Shown one piece after another: positions 1 through 28,920 of a DNA stretch of 31,855 nt. Below the pieces are notes generated by a model that was not told the origin of the DNA, searched no databases, and saw nothing but the letters and a program-made list of their open reading frames with translations. Positions within the stretch are counted from its first letter, which is position 1, and each line of letters opens with the position of its first letter. The stretch covers positions 1 to 31,855 of the forward strand of contig JANRKO010000021.1 in the NCBI GenBank assembly GCA_033763455.1, given 5' to 3'. The translations under genes and the position numbers were made by a program. Origin of the DNA: Polyangiaceae bacterium. GTDB taxonomy: Bacteria > Myxococcota_A > Polyangia > Polyangiales > Polyangiaceae.

Positions 1-1
1 G

Positions 2-244
2 GCCTGCGTCGGCGCACTCTACAAATGGCTGAATCGCCGCTCCCAGAAGCGGTCTTTCACCTGGGAACGTTTTGAAAAGCGTTTGCAATTCAATCCACTA
101 CCCATCCCACCATTTGGCCAAGACCTGCGCGATGTTTCCTCTGAACGCAATTCCAATAAACACAAACCGAAGAGCCGGATGCGGGAAATTCGCAAGTCCG
201 GTTCTGTAAGGAGCACCGGGTGGCAACACCCGGTGTTTACTTGA
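2..244 (+). CDS. ltrA: Group II intron reverse transcriptase/maturase, C-terminal 80 aa (5'-truncated by the window edge; not in the ORF track)
   Basis: Manual translation of frame 2: [37 protein letters not shown]...[31 protein letters not shown]...W..F....PLP is the domain X end typical of endonuclease-less bacterial intron proteins. No stop until TGA 242-244. Confidence 0.88.
172..204 (+). ncRNA. Group II intron catalytic domain V
   Basis: GAGCCGGAT-GCGG-GAAAT-TCGC-AA-GTCCGGTTC: AGC catalytic triad at 173-175, 9-bp lower stem (172-180 with 196-204), 2-nt AA bulge (194-195), short upper stem with a GAAA-containing loop. Confidence 0.93.
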
Positions 245-245
245 T
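208..245 (+). ncRNA. Group II intron domain VI, branch point and 3' splice site
   Basis: AAG(208-210) pairs with CTT(240-242); A239 is bulged; GAGCACCGGGTG(211-222) pairs with CACCCGGTGTTT(227-238) around a GCAA GNRA tetraloop. The branch A is the 7th nt from the terminal AT (244-245). Confidence 0.9.
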
Positions 246-1647
246 GGCCACACCCACTCGCATTGAAATCGACACTCTGGGCGAAGTCCACGTTCCCGAC
301 GCACAGCTTTGGGGCGCGCAAACCCAACGCAGCCTCGAAAACTTCAAGATCTCCAAAGAGAAAATGCCCGAAGAGCTGATTCATGCGCTCGCATTGGTGA
401 AGAAGGCCTCGGCGCTCGTGAACATCGAGCTTAAAATGGTCGACGAAAAGATCGGGCACGCCATCGCGGCCGCCGCAGATGAGGTGTTAGCCGGAAAACA
501 TCCAAACGAATTCCCACTCGTGGTTTGGCAAACGGGTAGCGGCACGCAGAGCAACATGAATATGAATGAAGTGCTCGCCAATCGTGCCAGCGAAATCATG
601 GGCGGCGTGCGCGGTGAGAAGCGGCTCGTGCATCCGAACGACCACGTGAACCGCGGGCAATCTTCCAACGATGTTTTCCCGGCGGCCATGACTATGGCGT
701 GTGTTACCGCTGTACGCACGCGGGTGTTACCATCCCTGGGGCTGCTGAGTCAGGTATTGGCAGAGAAGGCTCAAGCGTTTGCAGACGTTGTAAAGATCGG
801 GCGCACGCACCTGATGGACGCCACGCCGCTCACCTTGGGGCAGGAAATGAGCGGCTGGGTGGCCCAATTGAACCATGGCAAAGCGCACGTGGAAGCTTGT
901 TTGCCGCACCTTTCGGAGCTGGCGCTGGGAGGCACGGCAGTCGGGACAGGGCTCAACGCCCATCCTAAATTCGCGGTGATGGTGGCCGAGAAGCTCAGCG
1001 AGCTCAGTGGCTTCCCGATTGTCACCGCGCCCAACAAGTTTGAATCGCTCGCGGCTCACGACGCCATTGTGTTCGCCCACGGGGCCCTCAAAACAGTTGC
1101 GGCATCTCTCATGAAGCTGGCTAACGACGTCCGCTGGTTAGCATCCGGTCCACGTTCGGGCATCGGCGAGCTCATCATTCCCGCCAACGAACCGGGCAGC
1201 TCCATCATGCCGGGCAAGGTGAACCCCACCCAGTCCGAAGCGCTCACCATGGCCTGCGCGCAGATCATGGGCAACGATGTTGCCATCAACATCGGGGGCG
1301 CAAGCGGCAACTTCGAGCTCAACGTCTTCAAGCCGGTGATTGTCCACAATTTCCTTCAGAGCGCGCGGTTAATTGCCGACGGCGCCGATAGCTTCCGCGA
1401 AAACTGTGCGGTGGGCATCGAGCCTGATCGCGCTCAGATCAAGGCGCACTTGGAGCGTTCTCTAATGCTAGTGACAGCTCTCAACCCCCACATCGGCTAC
1501 GACGCCGCGGCCAAAATCGCCAAAAAAGCCCACAAGGAAGGCACTACCTTGAAGCAAGCGGCGCTGGCACTCGGGCTCGTGAGCTCCGAGGACTTCGACC
1601 GCTGGGTGCGCCCAGAACACATGATCGGCACCCTGCAAGGAAGCTAA
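244..1647 (+). CDS. fumC: Class II fumarate hydratase (fumarase C)
   Basis: Signature [13 protein letters not shown], plus [24 protein letters not shown] and N-terminal TRIEIDTLG...WGAQTQRS. Start placed at ATG 244 (MATPTRIE) because the ORF-track start GTG 220 lies inside intron DVI. Confidence 0.97.
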
Positions 1648-3456: not shown

Positions 3457-5658
3457 ATGAGCCAAGATCCGAACGTTAAGAACAGCCCTCGCCCCTACCC
3501 CCGCTGGGACGAAGCGCACGCCGCTACGCTAGACCCCGTGCAGCGCTTGGTCTATCGCTCGAACCTCCTCGGCTCAGATCAGCGCGTCACGAATACCGGA
3601 GGTGGGAATACCTCCGCCAAGCTTCTTGGGAAGGACCCAATCTCGACCGAAGACGTCGAAGTGCTGTGGGTGAAGGGTTCAGGCGGGGACCTTCGCACTA
3701 CGAAGAAGGATGGCTTCGCTTCGCTCTATCAGAAGCGCGTGCTGGCCTTGCAGGATGTTTACGCACGCTTCGAGACACGTGGAGTAAAGAGCGAAGCCGA
3801 AGACAAGATGGTCGATATGTACAAACATTCGACCTTCAACCTAAATCCAAGAGCTGCCTCCATTGACACGCCGCTGCACTCATTTGTGCCGCGAAAACAC
3901 GTGGACCACATGCACCCGAATTCGGTGATTGCAGTTGCCGCGTGCAAAGACCGCGAAGTGCTCACTGAAAAGGTATTTGGTGGAGAGCTCCAGTACATGA
4001 ATTGGCTGCGCCCTGGCTTTGAGCTCGGGCTGGAGCTGCAGGAAATATGCAAAAAGAACCCCAAGGCCAAGGGCGCCATCATGGGGCAACACGGCGTTAT
4101 CAACTGGGCGGACGACGACCGAGCTTGCTACGAGCTTACCATTTCGCTTATAGAAAAAGCTGACGCGTATATCGCCGCGTGCGACAAGGGAGCGCAAACC
4201 TTCGGCGGAAAGAAGTTCGAATCCTTGCCCCAACCCAAGCGCGAAGCCGTTTTGGCGGAGGTGCTGCCGTTCATTCGTGGCCAGATCACCTTCAAAGGGC
4301 AACGCTTGATTGGCACCGTACAGCACGACGATACCATGTTGCGCTTCGTAAATTCGGCCGACGCTCCGCGCCTGGCAGATTTGGGCACGAGTTGCCCGGA
4401 TCACTTCCTGCGAACCAAAATCAAGCCACTCTACGTTAACTGGGACCCTGCCAAAGAAGACGTGGCGGCGCTCAAAGAGAAGCTTACGAGCGGGCTTGAG
4501 GCATACCGCGAGGGATACAAAGCCTACTACGAACGCTGCCGGCGCCCGGGGTCCCCCGCCATGCGCAACCCCAATCCATCGGTCGTGCTGATTCCGGGAT
4601 GTGGCATGATCGCCTGGGGCAAAACGAAGTCTGAAAGCCGCGTTACGGCTGAATTCTACAACTGCGCAGTCGAAGTGATGCGCGGAGCGGAAGCCATCAG
4701 CGAATACGTGGCCTTACCCGAGCAAGAGGCTTTCGATATCGAATACTGGGCACTCGAAGAAGCGAAACTCCAGCGCATGCCGCCAGAAGAAGAGCTTTCA
4801 CGCCAAGTGGTAGCCGTGATTGGCGCGGGCAATGGGATCGGCAAGCAAGTTGCTATCCGACTCATGAAAGAAGGCGCGACGGTGGCATGCATTGATCGAG
4901 ATCTAGAGGCCGCCAAGGCGACGGCAAAGGAGCTGGAAGCCATCTATGGCGTCGGTATTGGCGTCGCCGGAACGGGCGTATCCGGAGTCGGGCCGGTGCT
5001 TGGGCTTGCCGCGGACATCACCGAACGGGAGAGCATTCGCGCTGCACTGCAGGATGTGGTGTTAGCCTACGGTGGCGCTGATACTGTGATCGTAACGGCA
5101 GGGATCTTCGTTTCCCCCGACAAAACAGGACACATCACGGACGACAAGTGGGGCCTCACCTACGCCATCAATGTGATTGGTCCATATTTGGTGGCCGACG
5201 TTGCGGCTGGGATTTGGAAAGCCCAAGGCACCCCTGGCAACTTCGTGATCACCACCTCGGTGAATGCGGCCGTGGCCAAAAAAGGCAGCCTTGCCTACGA
5301 CACGTCGAAAGCCGCAGCCAATCACCTGGTGCGTGAGCTTGCCGTTGAACTCGCACCGCTCGTGCGGGTAAACGCCGTGGCTCCGGCGACCGTCGTCAAA
5401 GGCAGCACCATGTTCCCTCGCGATCGGGTGATATCATCGCTCGTGAAGTACAATATCTCGCACAACGAAGCAGAATCCACCGAAGCTCTGCGTGAAAAGC
5501 TCGCTCAGTTCTATGCCGATCGCACGCTCTTGAAGCAGCCCATCACCCCCGAAGATCAGGCGGAAGCCGTATTTCTGTTGGTTTCCAACCGTTTACCGCG
5601 AACCACCGGCCAGGTTATCAACGTGGACGGAGGCTTGGTGGACGCGTTCCTACGATAA
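3457..5658 (+). CDS. rhaD: Bifunctional rhamnulose-1-phosphate aldolase / short-chain dehydrogenase (RhaEW/YuxG type)
   Basis: N-terminal class II aldolase (YRSNLLGSD, GGGNTSAK, WVKGSGGD, HVDHMHP, CPDHFLRTK, EAFDIEYWALEEAKL) fused to an SDR domain (GAGNGIG, YDTSK, VRVNAVAP, NVDGG). GGAG RBS. Confidence 0.93.
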   Translation: MSQDPNVKNSPRPYPRWDEAHAATLDPVQRLVYRSNLLGSDQRVTNTGGGNTSAKLLGKDPISTEDVEVLWVKGSGGDLRTTKKDGFASLYQKRVLALQDVYARFETRGVKSEAEDKMVDMYKHSTFNLNPRAASIDTPLHSFVPRKHVDHMHPNSVIAVAACKDREVLTEKVFGGELQYMNWLRPGFELGLELQEICKKNPKAKGAIMGQHGVINWADDDRACYELTISLIEKADAYIAACDKGAQTFGGKKFESLPQPKREAVLAEVLPFIRGQITFKGQRLIGTVQHDDTMLRFVNSADAPRLADLGTSCPDHFLRTKIKPLYVNWDPAKEDVAALKEKLTSGLEAYREGYKAYYERCRRPGSPAMRNPNPSVVLIPGCGMIAWGKTKSESRVTAEFYNCAVEVMRGAEAISEYVALPEQEAFDIEYWALEEAKLQRMPPEEELSRQVVAVIGAGNGIGKQVAIRLMKEGATVACIDRDLEAAKATAKELEAIYGVGIGVAGTGVSGVGPVLGLAADITERESIRAALQDVVLAYGGADTVIVTAGIFVSPDKTGHITDDKWGLTYAINVIGPYLVADVAAGIWKAQGTPGNFVITTSVNAAVAKKGSLAYDTSKAAANHLVRELAVELAPLVRVNAVAPATVVKGSTMFPRDRVISSLVKYNISHNEAESTEALREKLAQFYADRTLLKQPITPEDQAEAVFLLVSNRLPRTTGQVINVDGGLVDAFLR

Positions 5659-5673
5659 CCAAACCCCGAGAGG

Positions 5674-5692
5674 GCGCGGTGGGGGGCCGCGC
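5674..5692. terminator. GC-rich hairpin between convergent rhaD and cheB, possible terminator
   Basis: GCGCGG...CCGCGC stem in the 39-bp gap; no clear U-tract. Confidence 0.3.
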
Positions 5693-5697
5693 AGGGG

Positions 5698-6771
5698 CTA
5701 CAGGCGAGATAGAAAGACGCCTATCTCGTTCAGAGGAGAACTTCGGCTTACCGCTTTGGCACGTACCGCGGAGCCGGGCATACCGTAGACTACTGCTGTC
5801 GACTCACTCTCGGCGATTACAATCCCCCCCTTGGCGAGGATCGCCTGGGCACCAGCTGTTCCGTCGTCCCCCATCCCAGTGAGGATGACGCCCACCGCCC
5901 GATTACCAGCAACATTCGCTACACTCGTGAAGAGCTTGTCGGCACTTGGCACGTAGCGGTCCCCTTCATCGGGCGTGGATACCCTAATTCTAAGATGCCC
6001 ACCCGGCGCCATTTCGAGTTGCATGCAACGCCGACCTGGGCACACAAAACCCGCTGCTTGAGCGATAGTATCCCCGTCTTGAGCCTCACTCACAGCCACG
6101 GCGCTTCGTCGATCCAGACGCTCGGCAAAGGTGCGAGTGAACTTGTCGGGCATGTGTTGAGCGACAAGGAAGGTGTTCTTCGAGGTCGCCGGTAGCTGCG
6201 CGAAAATGTCCATGAGTGCGGTGGGTCCGCCGGTAGAAGACCCGATGGCCACCACAAATCGTGGCGGTGGGCCCGGTACTGTTCGAGCGGGCTTAGCGCC
6301 AGCGCCTGTGAGTAACTCCTGTTCCCACACACGTGCGCGCAACATTTGGTTGGGGCGCACGCTGCGGGCTAGCAACACCTTCTTTAACAGATCTGCACGA
6401 ATCCCAGCAAAATCCGCGTCTGCTCTGCGATCAGGTTTGGTAACAAAATCCAACGCACCCAGCTCTAGCGCTTTGAATACGTTTTCCTTCTGGCTGTAGC
6501 TTGAGACCACCACCACGGGAGTCGGCATCTTGCTCATCAAAATGCGAAGGAAGGTGAAGCCGTCCATCTTGGGCATCTCGAGATCCAACGTGATGACGTC
6601 TGGAAGCAGCTGAAGTACCTGGCGAATCGCTTCTTCACCGTCGCTCGCCTTGCCCACGACCTCAATTCCCGGGGCCGCAGCCAAGATCTCGGAAATGTTC
6701 CGGCGGTTGAAAGCGGAATCATCCACGATCAAGACCCGCAAAGGTTTCTCTGTGAGGCTGGTTACGGTCAT
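5698..6771 (-). CDS. cheB: Chemotaxis response regulator protein-glutamate methylesterase
   Basis: REC domain (VDDS, TLDLEMPKMDG, KP) plus methylesterase triad motifs GSSTGGP, QHMP, LTGMGDDG. ATG 6771 overlaps the cheR stop (TAATG). Confidence 0.96.
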   Translation of the reverse strand: MTVTSLTEKPLRVLIVDDSAFNRRNISEILAAAPGIEVVGKASDGEEAIRQVLQLLPDVITLDLEMPKMDGFTFLRILMSKMPTPVVVVSSYSQKENVFKALELGALDFVTKPDRRADADFAGIRADLLKKVLLARSVRPNQMLRARVWEQELLTGAGAKPARTVPGPPPRFVVAIGSSTGGPTALMDIFAQLPATSKNTFLVAQHMPDKFTRTFAERLDRRSAVAVSEAQDGDTIAQAAGFVCPGRRCMQLEMAPGGHLRIRVSTPDEGDRYVPSADKLFTSVANVAGNRAVGVILTGMGDDGTAGAQAILAKGGIVIAESESTAVVYGMPGSAVRAKAVSRSSPLNEIGVFLSRL

Positions 6772-7658
6772 TATCGATCCCAACGCTGGGCTGCCAGCGG
6801 CTTTCTGTACACCAGGTCGTCGGTTAGGTGCACTAGTTCAAACGCAGTAGACAAGTTCAGTAGGCTTTCCGAGTGCCCAAGGAGGAGATAGCCGCCTGGC
6901 ACCAGCCGTTCGTACAGGGCATCGATGACCCGACGACGAGAGTCGGTATCGAAGTAAATCAGGACGTTTCTGCAGAAAACGACGTCCACTCGACCCACCA
7001 TTGAGGCCTTCGCTGGATCAAGCAGATTCAGATTCCCGAACCAGGAGTTCCTCTTGATCCGTTCCTTCACCTCCCACATTCTCACACCAGTACTCGGTCG
7101 TTCGTCAAAAAAAACTGCACGCTGCTGGGGAGTTGTGACCCGAAGCGAACTTTCCCGGTAGAGCCCGCGGCGGGCGTGCGCGACGCTCTTCTTGGACAAG
7201 TCCGTCCCAACCACGCGCACGGACCAATCCTTAAAAAGCTCCGTTTGCTCGATGAGCATCGCAAGGGTGTAGACCTCCTCACCCGTGGAACAGCCAGCGC
7301 TCCACACGCGCAAACGCTTCTGACTAGCCAACGAAACGGCGAGCTCGGGAAGAATTTCTCGCTGAAACGCGGTGAGCTGGTACTCCTGGCGAAAGAAGTA
7401 TGTCTCTTTGGTCGTGATGAGTTCGAGTGCCGCCTCTAGCTCCTCGAACCCCGAGGGATGGTGGCGGAGGTGCTTGTAGTACTCGGAGAAACTGGAAAAG
7501 CCTAAATCATCCAGCCGTTCAGCGAGCCTGCGCTCAAACATGTAAAGAGAATCTTCCTCAAAGAACAACCCCGCGTGCTGATTCATGTGGTCTCGCAACA
7601 ACCGGAACTCGGCCGCCGTAAGGCTGGGGTGGTCGCGAAAGATCCCTCGGGTTGTCAT
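6771..7658 (-). CDS. cheR: Chemotaxis protein-glutamate O-methyltransferase
   Basis: TTKETYFFR, VWSAGCSTGEEVYTLA, GTDLS, FCRNVLIYFD, GGYLLLGHSESL. Confidence 0.96.
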   Translation of the reverse strand: MTTRGIFRDHPSLTAAEFRLLRDHMNQHAGLFFEEDSLYMFERRLAERLDDLGFSSFSEYYKHLRHHPSGFEELEAALELITTKETYFFRQEYQLTAFQREILPELAVSLASQKRLRVWSAGCSTGEEVYTLAMLIEQTELFKDWSVRVVGTDLSKKSVAHARRGLYRESSLRVTTPQQRAVFFDERPSTGVRMWEVKERIKRNSWFGNLNLLDPAKASMVGRVDVVFCRNVLIYFDTDSRRRVIDALYERLVPGGYLLLGHSESLLNLSTAFELVHLTDDLVYRKPLAAQRWDR

Positions 7659-9760
7659 GCGCGAGAGGGGTCCGTAGGAGGTGGTGATAAGCGAGGGGCA
7701 CGCGAACTCGGACGACCCTCCAGTTGGTTCAGGGTGCGCAACAAAGCGGCATGAACCTGCGAGTCTGGCTCCGAACGCAAGCGCTGTCGAATGACATCTG
7801 GATCCATCCCAGGAACGGCGGCTGCAAGATGTGCCGCAAAATCGCGAACTTCACGCAGAGGGTGTTCAAGACAAAACCGCACATGCGGTGCGGCCTGGGA
7901 CCCGAACTCTACGACTAGGGCCTCCAGCGCCAACTTCACAACATCGGGCGCGGAGTGTTCAAGCGCGTCAGCGAGCGCCTCTGAGCGAAACGGGCTCTTA
8001 AGACCGACGAGCGCTTCTATCGCCGTGAGCGCGCATAACGGTTCGGGCCGCGATAGCATGGAGCGAAGCACCTCAAGCGCGCGGCTGTCGTTGGTATTGC
8101 CCAAAGCTCGAATCGCCGGGATGAGTAGGCGATCTTCTTCGGTCTGTGCGATAAGAGAGATCAGGGGCAGAGCGCCCGGGGAGGAGCCGTTTTCAGCGCG
8201 CAGGCTGCCCAGGGCACCGAGCGCCGCCACCTGCACCTCGGGCTCCTCATCCGTAAGGGCGAGCGCTAATACCTCAACCGCGGAAGGTTCAGCGAGTGCC
8301 GCAAGTGCTTCTACGGCCAAACGTCGCATGGTCTTGTCGTCGGTAGCCAACAGTTGCTTCAGGTGAGCAATGTCGACATCCGGTTCGGTGTGGACCGGCT
8401 TGCCCAGTGTGGCAACGACGATCGGCCACGCCAAGGACTGAGGATCCGCGCTCAGTACGGCACGACGAGCGGACTCAGGGAAATTACTGGTTAGCTCCCC
8501 AAACGCTTGGACGGCCACCTTGCGCACGGAAGGCGGCACCTCTTGCCTCAACCACGGCAAAAGCGCGCTAATCATCGCCTCCCCGCCGTGTCGAGCAGCG
8601 GCAGTCAGGACCCAGCGAGCTTGGCGCGAGTCACCTTCACTCAGCAAACGCAACAACACCGCATCGACCTCGGCAAGGCTCCCATTCCTTGGTAGCCTCG
8701 CCAAGATCTCCAACAGACCGAACGCTTCCTCGACGTCAGCTTCTGGAATCACCCGTACTAACGCGAGCACGCCGAGCTCCCTGAGGGAAGCGAGTGCCGC
8801 CTCCGCCTCCGCCTCCATGTCTGCATCTCCTAAACGCGAAACAAGAATCTCGGCCGATCGTGGCGTTTTTTGCAGCCCGCAGAGGAAGACCGCGGATTTA
8901 CACCATACCAGGTCCTCCCCACGTGACGCCGCTTGGGCTTCGACAAGCTCCGTAGCACGAGGTGCTTTTGACAGCGCCGCTTCGACGGCTCTCTGCTGAT
9001 TCTCGCCACTTTTGCCGAGCGTTGCGAGCGCAATCAGTGCTTCTCGGAAAGCGGCACCTGGACCTCGGTTCAATTCGTCCACCAACATTGGAACGGCAAC
9101 CACATCTCCGGTGAGCCCCAACGCCAAAAGGGCGGTTGGACGAAGGATTGGATCTGAGAGCATACTCGCGATGTGTGGGACGGGCAGGGCAAGCTGGAGA
9201 GTGTTCAGCCCTCCAAGTGCCGCCAAACGAAGCATTGCGTGCGAGCTCCGAAGTGCTGCTTCAAGCAGGTGAAATGCCTCCTCTGGATCGACGGCCCCGA
9301 GCGCCGCAACAGCTTCAATCCCGGCCATTTGCACGTTCGGATCGACGTCAACCAAGAGCTGACTGAGCGGGAGGAAGGCCCGCGCCTCACCCGAACTACC
9401 TAGCACCTCAGCCGCTAACTTTTTTGCATCGGCATCGAACGCTCCGAGGCGCCTGCCTAGCTCATCGACAACGGACTCACCGTACACAGCCAACGCCTCA
9501 ACGGCGGCATTCCGCTGGCCAACGTGGTCGCTATCGGTGAAGGTAGCAAGTAAACTGGACATGACATCGGGAGCCGGGGAAAGAGCCTTGGCGATGCGAA
9601 CTGCCTCTTTCCGAACTCGCCAGTCAGAGTCCGCCATGCACTTCACGAGCAATGGCGCGCGCCCCTTTAGAGCCTCAGTAGCTAACTTCTCGACCCCGTG
9701 TCGACGCACCTCCGCGTCCGCGGACGTGAGTGCCAATTCGATCTCCTGCTCAGAACTCAC
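7655..9760 (-). CDS. HEAT/PBS-lyase-like repeat protein within the che operon
   Basis: Repeated D.D..VR..AV.AL units (DSDWRVRKEAV, GQRNAAVEALA, DVDPNVQMAGIEAVAALG, DEEPEVQVAALGALG). Coupled to both neighbours by 4-nt overlaps (GTGA, ATGA). Confidence 0.88.
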   Translation of the reverse strand: MSSEQEIELALTSADAEVRRHGVEKLATEALKGRAPLLVKCMADSDWRVRKEAVRIAKALSPAPDVMSSLLATFTDSDHVGQRNAAVEALAVYGESVVDELGRRLGAFDADAKKLAAEVLGSSGEARAFLPLSQLLVDVDPNVQMAGIEAVAALGAVDPEEAFHLLEAALRSSHAMLRLAALGGLNTLQLALPVPHIASMLSDPILRPTALLALGLTGDVVAVPMLVDELNRGPGAAFREALIALATLGKSGENQQRAVEAALSKAPRATELVEAQAASRGEDLVWCKSAVFLCGLQKTPRSAEILVSRLGDADMEAEAEAALASLRELGVLALVRVIPEADVEEAFGLLEILARLPRNGSLAEVDAVLLRLLSEGDSRQARWVLTAAARHGGEAMISALLPWLRQEVPPSVRKVAVQAFGELTSNFPESARRAVLSADPQSLAWPIVVATLGKPVHTEPDVDIAHLKQLLATDDKTMRRLAVEALAALAEPSAVEVLALALTDEEPEVQVAALGALGSLRAENGSSPGALPLISLIAQTEEDRLLIPAIRALGNTNDSRALEVLRSMLSRPEPLCALTAIEALVGLKSPFRSEALADALEHSAPDVVKLALEALVVEFGSQAAPHVRFCLEHPLREVRDFAAHLAAAVPGMDPDVIRQRLRSEPDSQVHAALLRTLNQLEGRPSSRAPRLSPPPTDPSRA

Positions 9761-10251
9761 GCGTGGCCTCCGTCCGCTTTCGAGCCTGCAAAAAGACCCG
9801 ACATAAGGCTCTCGAAAGAGTCCAAATCCAGCACAAAGATGAGCTTGCCCCCGTGCGCGGCAACGCCGGAAATTCCGCGCACTTCATCGCCAGGGCCGAA
9901 CTCGGGCGCGGGCCTGAGGACACCACCCTCAGTTCCGAACACCTCGGTGACCCTGTCCACCGCCAGCCCAACTGTCCGCCCCTGCACATCCACCAAGATC
10001 CACTTTGTTCTGAGTGCTGACGCAAGTTTGGGCATCCCCAAGCGCGCTCGCAGATCCACAACCGGAACGACATCGCCGCGGTGATCCGCCACACCGAGGA
10101 TCACGTCTGGTGCGTTAGGTACAGGCGTGGTCGGAAGCGCATTCACAATTTCCCGCACGGAACTGATGGGAACGGCGTATTCCACGTCACCGAGCGCAAA
10201 CCCAACTAAGCTGCGCTTTGGATCGGGTCGGTCTTTACTCGGTTGCCTCAA
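9757..10251 (-). CDS. cheW: Chemotaxis coupling protein CheW (second copy)
   Basis: F.LG..EYAVPISSVREIV, TPVPNAPDVILGV..HRGDVVPVVDLR.RLG, VGLAVDRVTEV. TTG start is uncertain. Confidence 0.92.
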   Translation of the reverse strand: MRQPSKDRPDPKRSLVGFALGDVEYAVPISSVREIVNALPTTPVPNAPDVILGVADHRGDVVPVVDLRARLGMPKLASALRTKWILVDVQGRTVGLAVDRVTEVFGTEGGVLRPAPEFGPGDEVRGISGVAAHGGKLIFVLDLDSFESLMSGLFAGSKADGGHA

Positions 10252-10252
10252 G

Positions 10253-10735
10253 TTATGCTCCTACGATGGACCCAAGATCGAGCAAGACAATGGCGTCGCT
10301 AGAAGGGCGGCCAATGCCCTGAACGTGTGCGGAAATTTCACCCCCTAACACCGAAGCAACAGGCTCAATTTCACTCGCACCCAGACGGATCACCTGGCGC
10401 ACTTCGTCGACGAGTAACCCCACAACCTCACCCGAAGCGGTTTCGCTCAAGAGAATTCGCGTTCGCTGAGAGCCTGAACCATCTCCCAAACGCAACCTCT
10501 GCCTCAAATCAATCACCGTAACGAGGAGGCCTCGAACGCTGCAGATACCCAGTACATCCGACGCCGCACGCGGCACATGCGTGATAGGTGGCGGACTGAC
10601 GATTTCGCGAATAGTCGTGAGCTCCACGGCATAGAGCTCACCAGCGAGTGTAAACGCAAGAAATTCTCGGATGGGCCCAACTTGAGCGGCTCGCCTCAGG
10701 TGCCCCCGACGCTCCACGCGTGTCAAATCAGCCAT
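10253..10735 (-). CDS. cheW: Chemotaxis coupling protein CheW (first copy)
   Basis: FLAFTLAGELYAV..IREIV, ITHVP...VLGI..VRG..VTVIDLR, VGLLVDEVRQV. Confidence 0.93.
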   Translation of the reverse strand: MADLTRVERRGHLRRAAQVGPIREFLAFTLAGELYAVELTTIREIVSPPPITHVPRAASDVLGICSVRGLLVTVIDLRQRLRLGDGSGSQRTRILLSETASGEVVGLLVDEVRQVIRLGASEIEPVASVLGGEISAHVQGIGRPSSDAIVLLDLGSIVGA

Positions 10736-12833
10736 GGGCTCGCATCCCCTTCTCGCGAGCGTTCTCGCCGCTCAACAAAACCTCTTCAATCAAAGCCGCC
10801 GGATCTAACACCAGGCCTACGCGCTGATCGCCGAGCTCTGTGGCCCCCGAGAAACCACGTACGTGCGCAAGACTCTTACCGAGCGGCTTGATAACGATAT
10901 CCTGCTGCCCAATCAGGTAGTCCACCAAAATTCCCATTCGCTTGGAGCCCACGCTGGCAACCACCACGAACTTTCTGGCACGCGGGTCCTGTTCCGGCAG
11001 GCAAAGAACCCGTGCCAAACGGCAAAGCGGAAGAGATTGACCACGCAGAGTCATCACCTCTCGCCCGTCCACGACGCGCACGCCCCTGCCGTCGAAAGAA
11101 AGCGCTTCAGAAACACTATTGAGCGGCATTGCGAAGATATCTTGGCCTACCTTGACCAAAAGGGCGCTCACGATGGCCAGGGTTATTGGCAACGTGATGG
11201 TCATCTTGGTGCCGATGCCAGGCTCACTTTGCACGTCAATGACACCGCCGAGATGGCTGATGTTGGTCTTCACCACATCCATCCCGACGCCACGACCGCT
11301 CACGTCATCGACAACTTCGCGCGTGCTGACACCGGGAAGGAAGATAAGGCCCAGAATCTCTTCGCGCGAAAGCTCCTCCCGTTCGTTCAGATTGATCTTG
11401 CCAAGCCGCAGCGCCTTCTGCAGCAACGCATTCTCATCAATTCCTCGACCATCGTCCTCGATCTCAATAACAACGTGGTTCCCCTTTTGAAACGCATTCA
11501 GCGCAATGGTGCCGGCGTTTGGTTTGCCAACACGTGCCCGCTCCGCAGCACTTTCGATACCATGATCGATGGAGTTTCGAATCATGTGCATGAGCGGATC
11601 GCTCAGCTCTTCGACGATCAGCTTATCGATTTCGGTCTCAGCGCCCGTGATGACGAATCGAATCTCTTTGTTGAGCTCACGCCCGATTTGCCGGACCACA
11701 CGCGAGAGACGTTCGAATACTTGGCCCAAGGGCACCATTCGCACTTCAAGAATGCCGTCCTGCATTTCAGTGAGGCGACGCTCGAAATTGCGGTGAACAC
11801 GTAGGAGCTCCGAGGCAAGCTGCGGTTGGCCATCCGTGCGCACACGGTCAGCCACTTTGGCCAGAACGCTCCGTACAATCGCCAACTCGCCGACGATATT
11901 CATCAGCCGGTCAAGCTTGCGAATATCAACGCGCACCGTCTGGGTAAGGCTGCGCAGTGAACGATCCGGCGACGCCAGCGCCATCTCGGCGTTTTCTTCG
12001 GGCACCCCAAGTGGCTTCGAAAGGGCTGGGAGGCTCACCTCGTGCCGCACAGACCGCCCTCGGGAAAGGGGCGAACCATGCAGATCGGCTTTCCGGGCAA
12101 CCTCCTCGACGATGACGTGCTCTGACGCGAGCGAGCCGATCAACATCGAAAGGTCATCGTGGGATGCCATCAACAAATCGAGCTCAATAGTCTCGATGCT
12201 GGAAGACTCACCCGTGGGCAAATACGTTATGATTTCCCCGTGTCGTTTGGCCCGCTCTTTGATCTCCTCAAGTGCCTTGTCGAGGGTTGCAAGATCGAAC
12301 TTAACGCGTAAGCGGTACAGCCGGAGGCCTTGTTCGAGGTTGGAGCGTAGCCGATGCTCCTCATATTCGGTCAGAACCGCCAACATGCCCGGGTCGAGCT
12401 CGTAGTCGGTGACCATCGCGGGCTCAGGCTCTTCGTGCCCAGCAAGCTGCGCCAAACGCTCCAATAGGTTCGTGAGGCCCTGCGGCGCAGCCTCACTCCC
12501 CCCACGTTCTGCCTCCAGGATCTTGCCAAAAACGTCGATCGAGCTGAATAGCAAATCCAGCACCGCGCGCGTAAGTTCCGCACGACCGAGACGCAGATCG
12601 TCCAGCAAATCCTCCAGGTGGTGGGCCAAGCTGCCCATGGCCGTGGCACCAAAAAGGCCAGCCAGCCCTTTTAGGGTATGCACAGCTCGGAAAACTTCGT
12701 TCACCAACGTCGGATCGGAATGGCCCCCGGTGAGGGATTCGTCGATCGCGAGCAAGTTCCTAGAATAGGTTTCTATAATCTCCTGGGCTTCGGAGAAGAA
12801 CTCGTCGCGTGCTTTGTCGATTGAATCCACCAT
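10728..12833 (-). CDS. cheA: Chemotaxis histidine kinase CheA
   Basis: Hpt domain (VFRAVHTLKGLAG), P2-like region, dimerisation domain (TVRVDIRKLDRLMNIVGEL), HATPase (HMIRNSIDHGIE, DDGRG, SGRGVGMDVVK) and C-terminal CheW-like P5. Confidence 0.97.
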   Translation of the reverse strand: MVDSIDKARDEFFSEAQEIIETYSRNLLAIDESLTGGHSDPTLVNEVFRAVHTLKGLAGLFGATAMGSLAHHLEDLLDDLRLGRAELTRAVLDLLFSSIDVFGKILEAERGGSEAAPQGLTNLLERLAQLAGHEEPEPAMVTDYELDPGMLAVLTEYEEHRLRSNLEQGLRLYRLRVKFDLATLDKALEEIKERAKRHGEIITYLPTGESSSIETIELDLLMASHDDLSMLIGSLASEHVIVEEVARKADLHGSPLSRGRSVRHEVSLPALSKPLGVPEENAEMALASPDRSLRSLTQTVRVDIRKLDRLMNIVGELAIVRSVLAKVADRVRTDGQPQLASELLRVHRNFERRLTEMQDGILEVRMVPLGQVFERLSRVVRQIGRELNKEIRFVITGAETEIDKLIVEELSDPLMHMIRNSIDHGIESAAERARVGKPNAGTIALNAFQKGNHVVIEIEDDGRGIDENALLQKALRLGKINLNEREELSREEILGLIFLPGVSTREVVDDVSGRGVGMDVVKTNISHLGGVIDVQSEPGIGTKMTITLPITLAIVSALLVKVGQDIFAMPLNSVSEALSFDGRGVRVVDGREVMTLRGQSLPLCRLARVLCLPEQDPRARKFVVVASVGSKRMGILVDYLIGQQDIVIKPLGKSLAHVRGFSGATELGDQRVGLVLDPAALIEEVLLSGENAREKGMRAHG

Positions 12834-22388: not shown

Positions 22389-24626
22389 TCACTCACTGCC
22401 CGCGAGAGCTGATTTCTGAGGCTGGCGCTTCACCGGGCTCACTGCAGAGGCCCCAAAAAAGCGTCGTTCTTCGCGCGCCATGCGCTGCAAGAACTCGGCC
22501 GGAGCAAACCTCGGGCCATACTCGGACGCAAAGCGCTCCAGCTGCCGCACGATTGCCACGGGGCCAACCGCATCGACGTAGCGAAATGGACCGCCACGAA
22601 ACGGAGGAAACCCAAGGCCCATCACCGCGCCGATGTCCCCATCGCGAGCAGAACGTAAGATCCCTTCTTCAAAGCAGCGCACGGCTTCGTTGATGAAAGC
22701 AAAAGCACAGCGTTGAGCGATAATGGTTTTCGGGAGTGAAAGCTTCTTAGGTTGCCCAATGAGCCCGTAGACACTTTCATCAACCGGGCGCTTGCCCTTG
22801 TCCTTCTTCGATCCGTATACGTAAAATCCTTTTTGGTTTTTGCGCCCCAATCGGCCTTCGGCAACCAAGCGCCCCACCGTCTTCGGGGCAGCCATGCGCT
22901 CGCCGAACGCGTGGTGCAGCACTTTGCCCACCTTCTCGGCCACGTCGATACCCACCTCATCTATCAAAGTGATAGGCCCCACCGGAAAACCCCACTCCAC
23001 CAAGGCATCATCGATGGCATCAATACTCAAACCTTCGCCCAGCAAATGCGCCGCTTCATTCATGTACGGGCCCAAGATGCGCGTGGTGTAAAAGCCCGGA
23101 CCATCGTTCACCACAATGACCGTTTTCCCCTGCTTTTTTCCTATTTGAACGGCGGTGGCGGTGGCCCACGGCGCCGTCTTTTCGGTGACGATGATCTCCA
23201 GGAGTGGCATTTTGTGAACCGGGGAGAAGTAGTGCATGCCGAGCACCCTTTCGGGGGCACGGCTTGCAGCGGCGAGGTCCGCAATCGGCAACGAAGATGT
23301 ATTAGACGCAAAGATCAGGTTCGGATGCCCGTTCTCTTCGGTCTGCTTCAAGACTGACCGCTTCAACTCCAGATCTTCAAACACCGCCTCAATCACCAAC
23401 TCAGCATCGTGAAACCCTGAGTACGAGGAAGTCGGCGTGATGGTCGCGAGCAAGGCATCCCGCTCGGTCGCGCTCAAGCGGCGCCTGGCCACCCGTTCAT
23501 CGGCAATACCTCGGATGTAGTTCATACCGCGCCCGAGGCCGACGTCATCGCGATCCTTCAAGCGAACAGGGAGCCCCGCCTGAGCCGCGGTAACGTACGC
23601 TACGCCGGCGCCCATGAGCCCGGCTCCGAGCACTCCTACTTTGTGCACAACCGCGGGCTTTACAGAAGCATCATCCACACCACTGTCGCGCTTCTGCTCA
23701 TTGGTTGCAAAAAAGAGATTCATCAGCTCACGAGCTTCAGGCGTGACCACAAGGTCCCCAAACGCCTGAGATTCAGCCTGGAGACCACGTTCGAAGCCCT
23801 TGGCCAACCCCGTTCGCACCACTTCCAAGATGCGCTCTGGCGCCGGATAATTTCCGTGGGTCTTCCGACGCAACTGCTGCTTAGCTTTATCGAAGAGTAT
23901 CTTTCGACCAATGGGATTTTCAACAAGCAAGGCCTCCACCACAGCTGCCTTATCAAACCCCTTGTGAAGCGTGCGAAAGTGCCCACGGCGCCCAGATTCA
24001 CTCATCTTGAGTGCCAGCTTCGCGGCGACCTCGACCACAATGGCGGGAGGCACCACGTCATCCAAAAGGCCCATGCGTTTGGCACGGCGACTGTCAATCT
24101 GCTTACCCGTTAGCATCATATCGAGGGACGCCTGGATACCGACCAAACGCGGTAGCCGTTGCGTACCGCCAAGGCCCGGCAACACTCCTAACTGCACCTC
24201 CGGCAACCCGAGCTTGGTCTTCTCGTGACTGCTCCCCACCCTACCATGACAAGCTAACGCCACCTCCAAGCCACCCCCTAGGCAGGCGCCATGGATCGCG
24301 GCGACCACCGGGCGCGAAAAATCAGCCAGCTTTCCGAGCGCGCGTTGACCTGCGTTTGAAAGCGCACTCGCTTCGGAGGCTACCTGAACCTTCTTCAGCA
24401 TCTTGATGTCCGCGCCAGCAATGAAGCCATCGGGCTTACCCGAGGCAATCACCACGGCACGCACACTCTGATCGGCGTCGATTTCGGCCAACGCCGCCGT
24501 GAACTCTTCGGCAAAGTTGGGCTGGAGAGTATTTACGGGTTCGTCCGGAACATCGATGCGAATCACGGCAACGCCATCGTTGCGTTTCTCGATCGTGAGC
24601 GACTTTTCAAAAACCTGACTGATCAC
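22389..24626 (-). CDS. fadJ: Fatty acid oxidation complex alpha subunit (enoyl-CoA hydratase / 3-hydroxyacyl-CoA dehydrogenase)
   Basis: [70 protein letters not shown] 24626 overlaps the fadI TGA and has a GGAGG RBS. Confidence 0.93.
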
Positions 24627-25918
24627 GCAACCTCCAAAACCATCGCGGCACCGAGGCCGCCTGCCGCACATGCCGTGCACAAACCGAACTGTTGACCCCG
24701 GCGCTGAAGCTCTCGCAATGTTTGAGTGATCTGGCGCGCACCCGTTGCAGCAAAGGGGTGCCCCACCGCGAGCGAACCTCCGTTTACATTGAACTTCTCG
24801 CGGTCAATCATCCCAATTTTAGAAGAGCGCCCAAGCTTTTGCTGCGCAAACTTGTCGCTCTCAAAAGCCTGAATATTGCTCAACACCTGAGCGGCGAAGG
24901 CCTCATGCATGTCAATCAAGTGCATGTCAGCAAGCGTGAGCCCTGCGCGATCCAACGCAATCGGTGTGGCGTAGGCAGGCCCCATCAAAAGCTGCTCTGA
25001 CGGATCCAAAGCCGCAAACGCGTAACTCCTGATGAATCCAAGGATGTTGAGGCCTAAGGAGCGGGCCTTATCTTCGCGCATCAGGAGAATAGCGCTCGCA
25101 CCATCCGTTAAGGGTGACGAATTGCCGGCGGTTACGGTGCCATAGTTGCGATCGAACACCGGCCGCAGTTTAGCGTAGCTTTCCAGTAGCGAATCTTTTC
25201 GCACCAGATTATCTTCAGTAAACGGCTCGTATTTGGGGGGCACAAACACGTGCATCACTTCGTCATCGAATTTGCCCGCGGCCCAGGCTTTGGCCGCTAG
25301 CGTGTGGCTCAAGTGCGCAAATTCATCCTGCTCGCGACGACCAATGCCATTTTCCTTGGCCATCTTTTCGGCGCTTTCACCCATGGTGAGGCCCGTGGAA
25401 GGCTCCTTCAGTGCCGGAGGGATGGGAGCGAGATCTCCGAGGTGCACACCCTTAAACGCAGCCAATTTAGCACCGAGGCTCTTGGCTTTGCTCGCTTCCA
25501 CTAAGGCTCCTGCCAAACGCTTGTTCACGGCCATGGGCACGTCGCTCGCGCTATCCGCACCCCCTGCAATCCCACACGTGATGGCGCCGGCCCAAATCGA
25601 CTCCGCAACATTGACCGTGGATTGATAACTGGTGGCGCATGCTCTCGACACGCTGTAGGCATCCGTGCTGCGCGGCATACCCGTACCGAGCACCACTTCA
25701 CGCGCGATATTCGGCGCGGCCAATGAAGGGATCACCTGCCCGTAGACGACCTGCTCTACGGCACTTTGGGGCACACCCGTCCGTTGCAAAAGCTCGGCTA
25801 CAACTATCTTCCCCAAATCCAATGCGGTTAGATGGCGATAAGCCGCGCCCACTTTACTAAAGGGCGTGCGAAGGCCCCCAACAATGGCAACCCGTGGTCT
25901 GCCTGCAAACTCATTCAT
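24623..25918 (-). CDS. fadI: Acetyl-CoA C-acyltransferase (3-ketoacyl-CoA thiolase)
   Basis: [45 protein letters not shown]. Start ATG 25918 with a GAGAGGA RBS. Confidence 0.94.
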
Positions 25919-26062
25919 GTGTGGTCTGATCCTCTCACCAACCAATATCCCAAGCTTCAGATCGATAGAGTCCGTGACGCAACGTGTCAACCCCGCCGTG
26001 AACCGATTGAGACTTCAGCGAGAAGACGCGCAGCCGGTCCTCTGGTAGGCAAAAGCAGCCGT

Positions 26063-27152: not shown

Positions 27153-28889
27153 ATGAGTCTCAACAGGTCCCGACTTCGAGCCGTTCCGCTTGCGTTCTCA
27201 GCCGCAGCCTACTGCGTTACCGGCTGCACGACTGAGGGGGGAGGCCGCGACGGTAGAGGAAGTGAGCCCGCAAACCAGGCTTCAGGCAACGCGAATGGCA
27301 ACCCCAACACCGTCCCGGGTGCAGGTGGCACCGGCGGCTCTACCGGCGGCAATGGCAACACCGGCGGCAGTCCTGTGTCCCTCCCACCGAGCGGGCCATT
27401 GGGTCCAATTGCGGTGCGGAGGCTAAGCACACCCGAGTACCAGAGGTCTGTGGAAGCCCTTCCCAATCTGAATGCGGGTGCTTCGGTCACCAGCGGGTTC
27501 CTGAGCGATGACGAAGTCCTCGGCTACCATAACATGACCTCGGCCTTGCGCGTCCCTCTGGCCGTGGCAGAGCAATACGCTGTCGCTGCCAAGCAGCTTG
27601 GTCAGAAGGCCATGGCCGAAGCGCAAACACTTGCCCCCTGCAGTGGCGCCAGCGACGCCCAATGTGGTGAAGCCTTCATTCGTTCTTTCGGGCAAAGCGC
27701 CTATCGGCGCCCCCTGGCAGAAAGCGAAGTGGCTTCGTATGTCCAATTATTTAGTGCAGAGGTGACCCGCACCTCCTACGCAGGCGGCATTGGTCTCGTA
27801 GTAGAGACCATGCTGCAGTCTCCATATTTCTTGTACAAGACCGAGGTAGGTGCTGGCACCGGCCCGAGCCGCGAACTTACGCCCCACGAAATCGCCTCTC
27901 AAATTTCCTACGCCATCGCAGGCGAGCCACCGGATGAGCAACTTTACGCGGCGGCAGCGTCCGGGAGCCTTGCCACCACGGCGGGGCGTGTAGCTGAAGC
28001 TAGGCGTTTCTTGGCACGCCCCAATTCCACCGCTTGGATACGGGGGTTCGTGCTCGATTGGCTGGGGATCTCAAACGCTGCAAAAGCGGTAAAGGACGGA
28101 GCATTGTTTCCATCGTTCTCCACTGGCCTTCAGGCCTCGATGGTCGAAGAATCGCATCGCTTCGTGGATACTCTTCTCACCGAGCACAATGGCTCGTTGA
28201 GCACCCTCTTCACGGCAAACTGGTCGCCGCTGGACAGTGTCATGGCCAGCCACTACGGCGTGCCCGCACCGGGTTCGGCTTGGACGAGCGTCACCATGCC
28301 GCCTGCGCGGCTCGGCATCTTATCCCAGGCTGCTTTCCTTTCCGCGCATTCCAAACCTGATAGTTCGTACCCTATCGGTCGCGGGAAAACGCTAAGAATG
28401 CGGGTGCTCTGTGCACCGATGGCGCCGCCGCCGCCCAATATCCCGCCGTTCAATCCTCCCCCAGAAGCGACCACGACTCGCGAGAAACTCGCAGCACACT
28501 CGACCAACCCAACCTGCAACTCCTGCCACAGGCTGATCGATCCGCTCGGCCTTGGATTCGAGAATTTCGATGCGGTTGGCGCCTATCGTGACTCGGAAAA
28601 CGGGAGCCCCGTCGACACACAGGGCGCTATCGTCGACGTGGCGCCCGAGGTCGACGGGCCCTTCGCTACCCCCGCAGAATTCATCAACCGCGTGGCTCAA
28701 AGCCAGGTGCTCCGTTCCTGCATCTCACGGGAAATGCTGAGGTGGAGCTTGGGCAGGGAAGAGACGGCGGCCGACGGCGCGCTGATCTCCGCAATGGGCA
28801 ATCAGCTCATGGCTGCAAACTTGGATATTCGAGAACTAATCGTGGGGCTGGTGCAAGCGGAATCCTACCCCTTCCGTTCGGACATGTGA
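27153..28889 (+). CDS. DUF1592/DUF1588-type (PSD/PSCyt3) probable lipoprotein with one CxxCH motif
   Basis: Lipobox-like VTGC, Gly-rich linker, RRLS..EY, AYRRPL, LQSPYFLYK.E, EIASQISY...PPDEQL, RLGIL, PIGRG...R..LC...PPPP, TTRE...H...CNSCH..IDPLG.GFENFDAVG.YR. Confidence 0.9.
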   Translation: MSLNRSRLRAVPLAFSAAAYCVTGCTTEGGGRDGRGSEPANQASGNANGNPNTVPGAGGTGGSTGGNGNTGGSPVSLPPSGPLGPIAVRRLSTPEYQRSVEALPNLNAGASVTSGFLSDDEVLGYHNMTSALRVPLAVAEQYAVAAKQLGQKAMAEAQTLAPCSGASDAQCGEAFIRSFGQSAYRRPLAESEVASYVQLFSAEVTRTSYAGGIGLVVETMLQSPYFLYKTEVGAGTGPSRELTPHEIASQISYAIAGEPPDEQLYAAAASGSLATTAGRVAEARRFLARPNSTAWIRGFVLDWLGISNAAKAVKDGALFPSFSTGLQASMVEESHRFVDTLLTEHNGSLSTLFTANWSPLDSVMASHYGVPAPGSAWTSVTMPPARLGILSQAAFLSAHSKPDSSYPIGRGKTLRMRVLCAPMAPPPPNIPPFNPPPEATTTREKLAAHSTNPTCNSCHRLIDPLGLGFENFDAVGAYRDSENGSPVDTQGAIVDVAPEVDGPFATPAEFINRVAQSQVLRSCISREMLRWSLGREETAADGALISAMGNQLMAANLDIRELIVGLVQAESYPFRSDM

Positions 28890-28920
28890 TCGGGCTCGCG
28901 CTCGAAAGGAACAGTTTCAG

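Follow-up and report, generated by a model that had tools for sequence, protein, structure and literature searches.

A group II intron reading frame that crosses domains V and VI and stops on the start codon of fumC: a lineage trait with possible translational coupling to the host gene

In the usual description, a group II intron consists of an untranslated ribozyme around a protein gene that is confined to domain IV. The yeast mitochondrial introns aI1 and aI2 have an open reading frame (ORF) in frame with the upstream exon, which covers domains I-IV and gives a fusion protein that is later processed. For bacteria, passages of PMC3552965 place the intron ORF within domain IV (DIV) and describe intron-encoded proteins (IEPs) of the RmInt1 type without an endonuclease (En) domain. 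With respect to target sites, the relevant part of a 2015 review restricts its list of target types in bacteria to homing sites, terminators and attC sites (PMC4424553), and introns of subgroup IIC are described there and elsewhere as inserting after terminators or attC sites (PMC12584367; PMC4424553). Introns of the IIB1/CL1 lineage occupy start or stop codons (Michel et al., 2007) and are characterized by an En domain together with a domain I insertion of 300-700 nt (PMC12584367; PMC4465626); how these introns colonise start and stop codons is stated there to be unknown (PMC12584367). Apart from introns, stop-start overlaps such as TGATG or ATGA are described in a passage of PMC6728339 as coupling genes of prokaryotic operons by termination-reinitiation. 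Here, we report on a 31,855-nucleotide stretch of a Polyangiaceae contig (JANRKO010000021.1, positions 1 to 31,855; hereafter the window), which begins with the 3' end of a mobile group II intron seated within the start codon of fumC (AT^G). Its IEP frame continues through domains V (DV) and VI (DVI) and stops on the junction ATG, an arrangement that is common to a lineage of related introns and may couple translation of the intron protein to that of the host gene.

The anatomy of the window copy can be read directly. Frame 2 contains no stop from base 2 through base 241 (80 codons; ORF listing) and ends at TGA 242-244, whose A244 is shared with ATG 244-246; the first-pass annotation had described both the frame through the two catalytic domains and its TGATG ending, and both stand. 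The Rfam model for group II DV/DVI (RF00029) matches positions 170-245 of the + strand over its whole length with 54.1 bits against a gathering score of 40 (E 3.8e-08), and the fold of 166-250 consists of two hairpins at -44.2 kcal/mol (z -5.69), a stability that none of 200 shuffles reached. The criteria for DV, the DVI branch point and the terminal AY were applied to the window; the 5' GUGYG and domains I-IV, which lie beyond its start, were judged in relatives. In the minimum free energy (MFE) fold, A239 is the sole bulged base of DVI, unpaired in its 3' strand, and as the 7th base from the intron end it fits the criterion of a bulged A 7-8 nt from the end; the DVI loop is GCAA (223-226) and the terminal AY is AU at 244-245. 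The Rfam model ends at U245, the second base of this AU, which puts the 3' splice site at 245|246 and assigns the first two letters of the “fumC ATG” to the intron. From AAG 170-172 onward, the IEP codons are made up of DV, DVI and the linker between the two: the catalytic triad AGC (173-175) is a Ser codon, and the last sense codon, ACU (Thr), begins with the branch-point A239. The contig edge falls within the intron ORF, the longest contig given in the window's own FumC record (P0121) being 31855 nt and hence as long as the window, and this assembly break inside the intron suggests that the element is present in several copies in the source.

The read-through is a property of a whole lineage. 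Alone, the window's 80 IEP residues gave no Pfam match, but as a query this tail retrieved 200 longer proteins with 58-88% identity, 430-490 aa in length and carrying RVT_1, the best of them (88%) having 474-484 aa. Among the matches listed, 118 of 120 run through the DV- and DVI-encoded residues and end in ...xT, the exceptions (P0062 and P0087) stopping a few codons into DVI. Such a query is biased toward tail-bearing proteins; a second one comprised only the reverse transcriptase (RT) region of a full-length relative (P0001, residues 40-400). Among its listed matches, 117 of 120 carry the tail: 75 were already known to bear it, and 42 of the 45 new proteins have it as well (38 by pattern, 4 by eye), the remainder being two proteins that contain the DV-encoded part with another end and one fragment.

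The same picture emerged for DNA copies. One scan of genome contigs, based on 22 aligned IEPs and RT-domain patterns, yielded 187 relatives, of which 79 loci were kept. Two clades of 22 loci each are considered here, clade A (L001-L018, L034, L038, L044 and L051) and its sister clade B (L019-L033, L035, L037, L052, L055, L057, L059 and L061), with IEP identities to P0001 of 39-73% and 40-47%, respectively (best tblastn segment); clade A counts out of 23 include the window. In all 22 clade A loci the IEP stop begins 67-76 nt past the first DV base, as the frame runs on for about 30 further codons, across the DIV-DV linker, DV and DVI, and closes with a stop at intron positions -4 to -2. In clade B, the stop lies 4-30 nt before the first DV base, which is the usual layout. 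The first-pass annotation had called the read-through unusual, in agreement with the placement of bacterial intron ORFs within DIV in the passages of PMC3552965, and had proposed to look for it and for the terminal stop in related copies, with close homologues that stop before DV as the outcome that would speak against its reading. Clade A retains both features throughout, and it is the sister clade B that stops before DV. The comparison of loci thus indicates that the TGATG geometry is a lineage property fixed by the insertion site AT^G and not a local coincidence. More distant introns end in ...AC and have no junction ATG.

Full-length relatives match Rfam RF02005 (group-II-D1D4-6) at 70-109 bits, and their RF00029 match ends at the same 3' position. 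Their introns measure about 1.9 kb (1782-1962 nt, leaving out the shorter L038 and L044) and open with GTGCG or GTACG. The IEPs of the lineage have 473-492 aa. The four full-length ones tested (P0001, P0002 and the IEPs of L002 and L028), given as 454-482 aa, have RVT_1 as the only IEP-type Pfam domain; Pfam found no HNH domain and no GIIM (maturase) domain in any of the four, and three showed a weak RdRP_1 match over the same RT region. Hosts are mostly metagenome-assembled genomes (MAGs) of Myxococcota and Bdellovibrionota, L002 coming from a Polyangiaceae MAG. Taken together, we consider the anatomy and the lineage-wide read-through as highly probable.

Several features indicate that this frame is not kept open by accident. 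By our own arithmetic, a random frame stays open over the roughly 25 codons of DV plus DVI with a chance of about 0.3, and hence an open frame alone is not unlikely. Its conservation among relatives is beyond chance: the IEP frame is free of stops in DV and DVI in 23/23 clade A copies with 21 distinct DVI sequences, the other two DVI frames contain stops in 15/23 and 3/23 copies, and the equivalent frame is closed in 20/22 copies of clade B. Clade A introns measure 71, 74, 77 or 80 nt from DV to the 3' end, always 2 modulo 3, so that DVI varies in length by multiples of three only; in clade B there are ten different lengths, distributed 14/4/4 among the three classes. All clade A introns, the window copy included, end in TGAT (14) or TAAT (9), compared with CGAT (8), CTAT (10), CAAT (3) and TCAT (1) in clade B. 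Consequently, a T(G/A)A stop occupies -4 to -2 in all 23 clade A copies and in none of the 22 of clade B, and position -3 is restricted in clade A to G or A, both of which keep the stop, while clade B also has U. In 21 of the 23 clade A copies the stop overlaps an ATG as in the window. At the same time the RNA hairpins are maintained: 92.9% of cells in the DV/DVI alignment are paired, 13 of 27 pairs changed on both sides and none of 500 shuffles reached the score. All cells of the 12 DV pairs are standard pairs across 21 copies, with 4 pairs changed on both sides, and 9 of the 15 DVI pairs changed in this manner. In clade A, the IEP frame therefore looks to be under frame-preserving selection while the DV and DVI hairpins covary.

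The second element of the overlap is the insertion site. The base after the 3' junction is G in 41/45 copies (21/23 in clade A, 20/22 in clade B), homology among the loci stopping after the intron T, and the junction codon is ATG in 40 of 45 related loci (20/22 in each clade; L042 lacks it). On the other side, AT forms the end of the 5' exon in 25 of 29 loci, counting those in which two exon bases can be read. Other ends occur in L002 (GT) and L023 (TT) as well as in L013, L044, L031 and L032, CG or GC being read four times. Since these non-AT exons are still followed by AT at the 3' junction, the 3' AT is borne by the intron. An intron that starts with G and ends with AU creates an ATG at both junctions, and splicing should rebuild the original start codon from the 5' exon. 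That the site is a genuine start codon is supported by the 29 junction-frame ORFs of at least 30 codons that were compared with Pfam: in 17 a domain begins at the start of its profile and near the start of the protein (five examples are given in Table 1), two matches were uninformative, one ORF lay in a protein kinase domain (L005) and nine had no Pfam match. For EBS1, the exon-binding site of the intron, no alignment column with a 6-nt complement to the 5' exon was common to more than one intron. Either the intron-binding site IBS1 is very short or the alignment is inadequate; the result is compatible with a very short RNA 5' exon but no proof of it.

Two loci deserve mention in this context. 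At L005:1856-2335, the intron is inserted into a protein kinase domain (Pfam profile 119-258), immediately ahead of the HRDLKPxN motif, with ATC as the junction codon, and one protein (P0259) has a kinase-like N-terminus fused to the intron's 5' ORF described below; the kinase domain may be a second recurrent target. L057 has two intron 5' ends within 2.7 kb (L057:4549 and L057:7235), the first beginning with ATACG instead of GTACG, and its BrnT-family toxin gene (6481-6762) starts at the 3' junction ATG of the first intron.

The first-pass annotation had taken ATG 244 as the start of fumC. This is right insofar as the codon opens fumC at its natural N-terminus; it needs correction in that A and T belong to the intron and only G to the exon, so that the codon spans the splice site. 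The identity of the host gene is clear from Pfam (Lyase_1 with E 2.8e-111, plus FumaraseC_C) and from FumC structures in the PDB (E 1e-213 to 3e-219), and its nearest named relatives are from Polyangiaceae MAGs. Residue 5 pairs with residue 4 of E. coli FumC (chain 1fuo), and the motif D[TS][FLMI]G, which lies 8-10 residues from the start in 103 of 120 FumC relatives (among the matches listed), is found at 9 when counted from ATG 244. This agreement in N-terminus and motif spacing argues that ATG 244 is the natural start, and the window's fumC is thereby in line with the start-codon sites of the relatives. The public FumC entry of this contig (P0121, 475 aa) sets the start at GTG 220 within DVI and thereby adds eight residues, MATPGVYL, that are translated from intron RNA; this start is probably mis-called. 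In practical terms, gene callers may thus mis-start host genes inside DVI, as in this record.

On the basis of these data, we propose, as the first-pass annotation had suggested, that the ribosome that ends the IEP is delivered to the fumC AUG in unspliced RNA by termination-reinitiation. Precursor RNA could thereby serve as a source of FumC in addition to spliced mRNA, and as long as a ribosome crosses DV/DVI, catalytic folding of that RNA would be excluded, so that translation and splicing would compete. The only element near the fumC ATG that resembles a Shine-Dalgarno (SD) sequence, GGUG at 232-235, is paired inside DVI, which makes independent initiation less likely than delivery by a terminating ribosome. 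The comparison of the clades supports selection for a link between the end of the IEP and the host AUG; for the functional coupling itself we see roughly even odds. For the statement as a whole, comprising the anatomy, the read-through of the lineage and coupling by termination-reinitiation, we estimate a probability of about 0.6.

Some observations weigh against this proposal. The evidence for coupling is a comparison of sequences only, and the 5' exon together with about 1.7 kb of the intron, including the 5' junction, promoter and any 5' ORF, lies outside the window. Clade B also sits on start codons without the ORF extension, and hence an intron does not need coupling to occupy such a site. 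Furthermore, L005 and L013, two clade A introns at non-ATG sites, keep the same IEP stop, which makes this stop a fixed feature of the intron whether or not an AUG follows. The junction AUG is located directly 3' of a stable helix. The conserved residues of the tail coincide with conserved RNA positions, and selection at the protein and RNA levels is inseparable there. Finally, the 5' junction frame, which is considered next, is interrupted by stops in 5 of the 16 introns of clade A.

Coding may extend over the 5' part of these introns as well. In 11 of 16 clade A introns (L010 with 4552-4995, L002, L004, L006, L007, L009, L011, L012, L015, L018 and L044), the 5' junction codon, formed by exon AT and G1 of the intron, opens a frame without stops to a TAA in domain IVa. 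This 5' ORF has about 145-172 codons, crosses domains I-III and often overlaps the IEP ATG as TAATG. In these 447-531 nt between the intron start and the IEP, the other two frames contain 4-12 stops, and 14/14 clade B introns have a junction frame closed by 4-16 stops. Because the 5' ORF meets the IEP start by the TAATG overlap, the whole intron appears to be covered by ORFs in the full-length clade A relatives that have it. L010 is an example, with ORFs at 4552-4995 (147 aa), 4995-6458 (IEP, 487 aa) and 6458-7078 (a YceI-like host gene) that are connected by one-base TAATG overlaps. Such a succession points to a larger relay of translation and adds to the case for coupling. The 5' ORF matched no Pfam family in four of four cases tested (E up to 1), and it is represented by 45 clusters in a library of 1.84 billion proteins, 24 of which begin with “MC” (junction ATG plus UGC). 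One of these proteins, P0257, is a single ORF of 213 residues reaching from the 5' junction (MCARQ...) to the DV/DVI tail (...SRMPKSGTYGSVRSASRKLVFT) and looks like an IEP-less derivative that is open from end to end. In P0253, the DVI-encoded tail is joined directly to MCARQ..., as expected if one intron had inserted on the junction ATG of another to give tandem copies; P0276 was grouped with these two proteins in the 5' ORF search. Domain IVa of many copies (e.g. L010:4974-5003) has stops in all three frames within about 25 nt (TAGTAG, TGA, TAA), by which any upstream frame would be forced to end beside the IEP start, and the same stretch contains an SD-like GAGGAAG just upstream of that start.

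The 5' exons of the 29 loci are mutually non-homologous, yet they have -10-like TANNNT hexamers at set positions: relative to the splice site the hexamer starts at -14 in 8/29, at -15 in 4/29 and at -12 in 3/29, with a background of about 1/29 per offset. In a stricter test with two hexamers, 8/29 showed a -35/-10 pair with the -10 starting at -17 to -13, and all other offsets together gave only five pairs. Examples are found at L052:4535-4548 and L051:4510-4548, with TTGxxx as the -35-like element, in the region from -45 to -1. The 5' exons of the relatives accordingly look like promoters from which transcription would begin at or beside the A of the ATG, as in leaderless genes, and the 5' exon of the RNA may be only 2 nt long. 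From this we derive the tentative idea, against which we see the odds, that clade A introns are translationally transparent retroelements of leaderless genes whose start codon coincides with the transcription start or is only a few bases away from it. A ribosome starting on the 5'-terminal AUG would translate the 5' ORF of about 150 codons across domains I-III, be handed over at UAAUG to the IEP, translate through DIV-DVI and, at a second handover at U(G/A)AUG, pass to the host gene. If this is true, host protein would be made without splicing, and the intron protein would be driven by the host initiation signal. Moreover, with an RNA 5' exon of only 2 nt (pppAU), splicing and target recognition must differ from those of known group II introns.

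Other explanations for the extended frame have to be weighed against coupling. Continuous ribosome cover rather than reinitiation could be what is selected: a translated intron would shield the 1.9-kb insert, which separates promoter and gene, from Rho-dependent polarity or RNA decay, and fumC would be made from spliced mRNA only. The frames kept open in both DV/DVI and the 5' ORF, the tiling of the whole intron by ORFs in L010 and the single ORF of the IEP-less P0257, from MCARQ... to ...VFT, would all be accounted for in this way. Nevertheless, we judge it improbable, as it explains neither why the stop falls exactly at -4 to -2, overlapping the AUG, nor why position -3 is limited to bases that preserve the stop. 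A similarly low probability is assigned to the tail being a working part of the protein, e.g. a basic RNA-binding extension of the maturase, with the overlap with the host ATG as a by-product of the intron end. Indeed, 117/120 and 118/120 proteins among the matches listed carry this basic and well conserved tail, and C-terminal extensions are class signatures that matter for maturase function and mobility in class D IEPs, as stated in a passage of PMC3552965. However, its conserved residues map to invariant DV bases, the DVI-encoded part varies freely along with stem covariation (e.g. TGWQHPV, AGRQRPA, LSRPIGRLR), and the IEP-less derivative keeps the frame to the same end.

Even less probable is a neutral origin, in which an ancestral stop was lost and the frame has remained open only through conservation of the DV/DVI RNA. 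Such RNA constraint does fix the frame of the nearly invariant DV, and 25 open codons are not rare by chance. What this leaves out is the variable DVI, with 21 distinct sequences in 23 copies, no in-frame stop and another frame stopped in 15/23, and likewise the occurrence of indels in multiples of three only and the restriction of position -3 to G or A. A private mutation or an assembly error of this contig was considered as well, given that the contig ends inside the intron and that assembly near a repeat is difficult; the probability left for it is negligible, and it was ruled out by 22/22 independent loci and more than 100 protein clusters that share this tail and its stop. Coupling of IEP termination to the host AUG therefore remains our preferred reading.

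Table 1. Features of the intron-fumC junction in the window and Pfam domains of ORFs that begin at the junction ATG of related loci
Feature	Position	Strand	Basis
Group II intron, 3'-terminal 245 nt	1..245	+	Rfam RF00029 match; IEP tail homologous to full-length RT/maturases
IEP (reverse transcriptase/maturase), last 80 codons	2..241	+	ORF listing; homologues carry RVT_1; tail common to relatives
Domain V, catalytic hairpin	172..204	+	Rfam alignment, MFE fold, pair conservation
Domain VI hairpin	207..243	+	Rfam structure line, MFE fold, covariation
IEP stop TGA, intron positions -4 to -2	242..244	+	Sequence, ORF listing
Junction ATG (intron A244 + U245 + exon G246)	244..246	+	Rfam model end, relatives' junctions
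fumC 3' exon, class II fumarate hydratase, 467 codons from junction ATG	246..1647	+	Pfam, PDB matches, orthologue N-termini
HTH_Tnp_1	residues 4-76 on profile 2-74		Junction-ATG ORF example
NhaA	residues 16-437 on profile 2-373		Junction-ATG ORF example
PilM	residues 5-347 on profile 1-338		Junction-ATG ORF example
BrnT	residues 5-86 on profile 1-77		Junction-ATG ORF example
Prepilin peptidase	residues 14-95 on profile 2-84		Junction-ATG ORF example

Directly downstream of fumC, a Uma2-family gene (1670-2488, + strand; Pfam Uma2, E 4.2e-24) encodes a putative restriction endonuclease fold with an alanine/glutamate-rich C-terminal tail. The regions 5698-12833 (-), 22389-25990 (-) and 27153-30315 (+) are ordinary chromosomal context. 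Genes of the window context include a chemotaxis cluster (CheB, CheR, a HEAT-repeat protein, two CheW and CheA), FadB/FadA-like genes and a pair of DUF1585/1587/1588/1592/1595 and DUF1552 proteins.

In clade A, the catalytic core of the intron (DV as well as DVI with its branch-point A) doubles as coding sequence, and its stop is placed one base from the splice site on the host start codon. If the coupling works, a retroelement could occupy the start codon of an essential gene at little cost, and the locus would offer a natural system in which ribosome passage and ribozyme folding oppose each other on the same 75 nt. We found no account in the literature of a bacterial group II ORF that runs through DV/DVI, of coupling at a 3' splice site or of a link to leaderless genes, although priority is not settled by this search.

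Compared with Ll.LtrB and RmInt1, the lineage has the same six-domain ribozyme, RT/maturase IEP, GUGCG start, AY end and bulged branch A, but the ORF, which in those introns lies in DIV (as far as covered by the passages of PMC3552965), here continues through DV/DVI to 1 nt before the 3' splice site. With the subgroup IIC introns it shares the targeting of a genomic context rather than one long sequence and a short exon pairing; their context is a terminator hairpin, whereas here it is a start codon or promoter-proximal site, and the Rfam type here is D1D4-6. This type did not correspond to a named class, and comparison with classes A-F and g1-g4 of PMC3552965 gave no placement of the lineage. 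IIB1/CL1 introns resemble it in being tied to initiation or termination codons in housekeeping genes. Their C-terminal endonuclease domain is absent here (RVT_1 only in the IEPs tested), as is their domain I insertion (in the clade A relatives, the 5' part up to the IEP has only 447-531 nt), and ORF read-through is not mentioned in the IIB1/CL1 passages of PMC12584367 and PMC4465626. The lineage represents a second, independent case of start-codon colonisation besides IIB1. With regard to translation, the 5' ORF of clade A is similar to yeast aI1/aI2 in that translation enters from host initiation signals and crosses ribozyme domains; the yeast introns give one fusion protein, whereas clade A has a separate ORF of about 150 codons that ends at the IEP start, and its 3' end is coding as well. 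The UGAUG/UAAUG geometry on the same strand, finally, is that of coupled operon genes, with the difference that in this lineage a splice junction falls within the overlap, the upstream ORF belongs to a retroelement and the preceding 75 nt are the catalytic core of a ribozyme.

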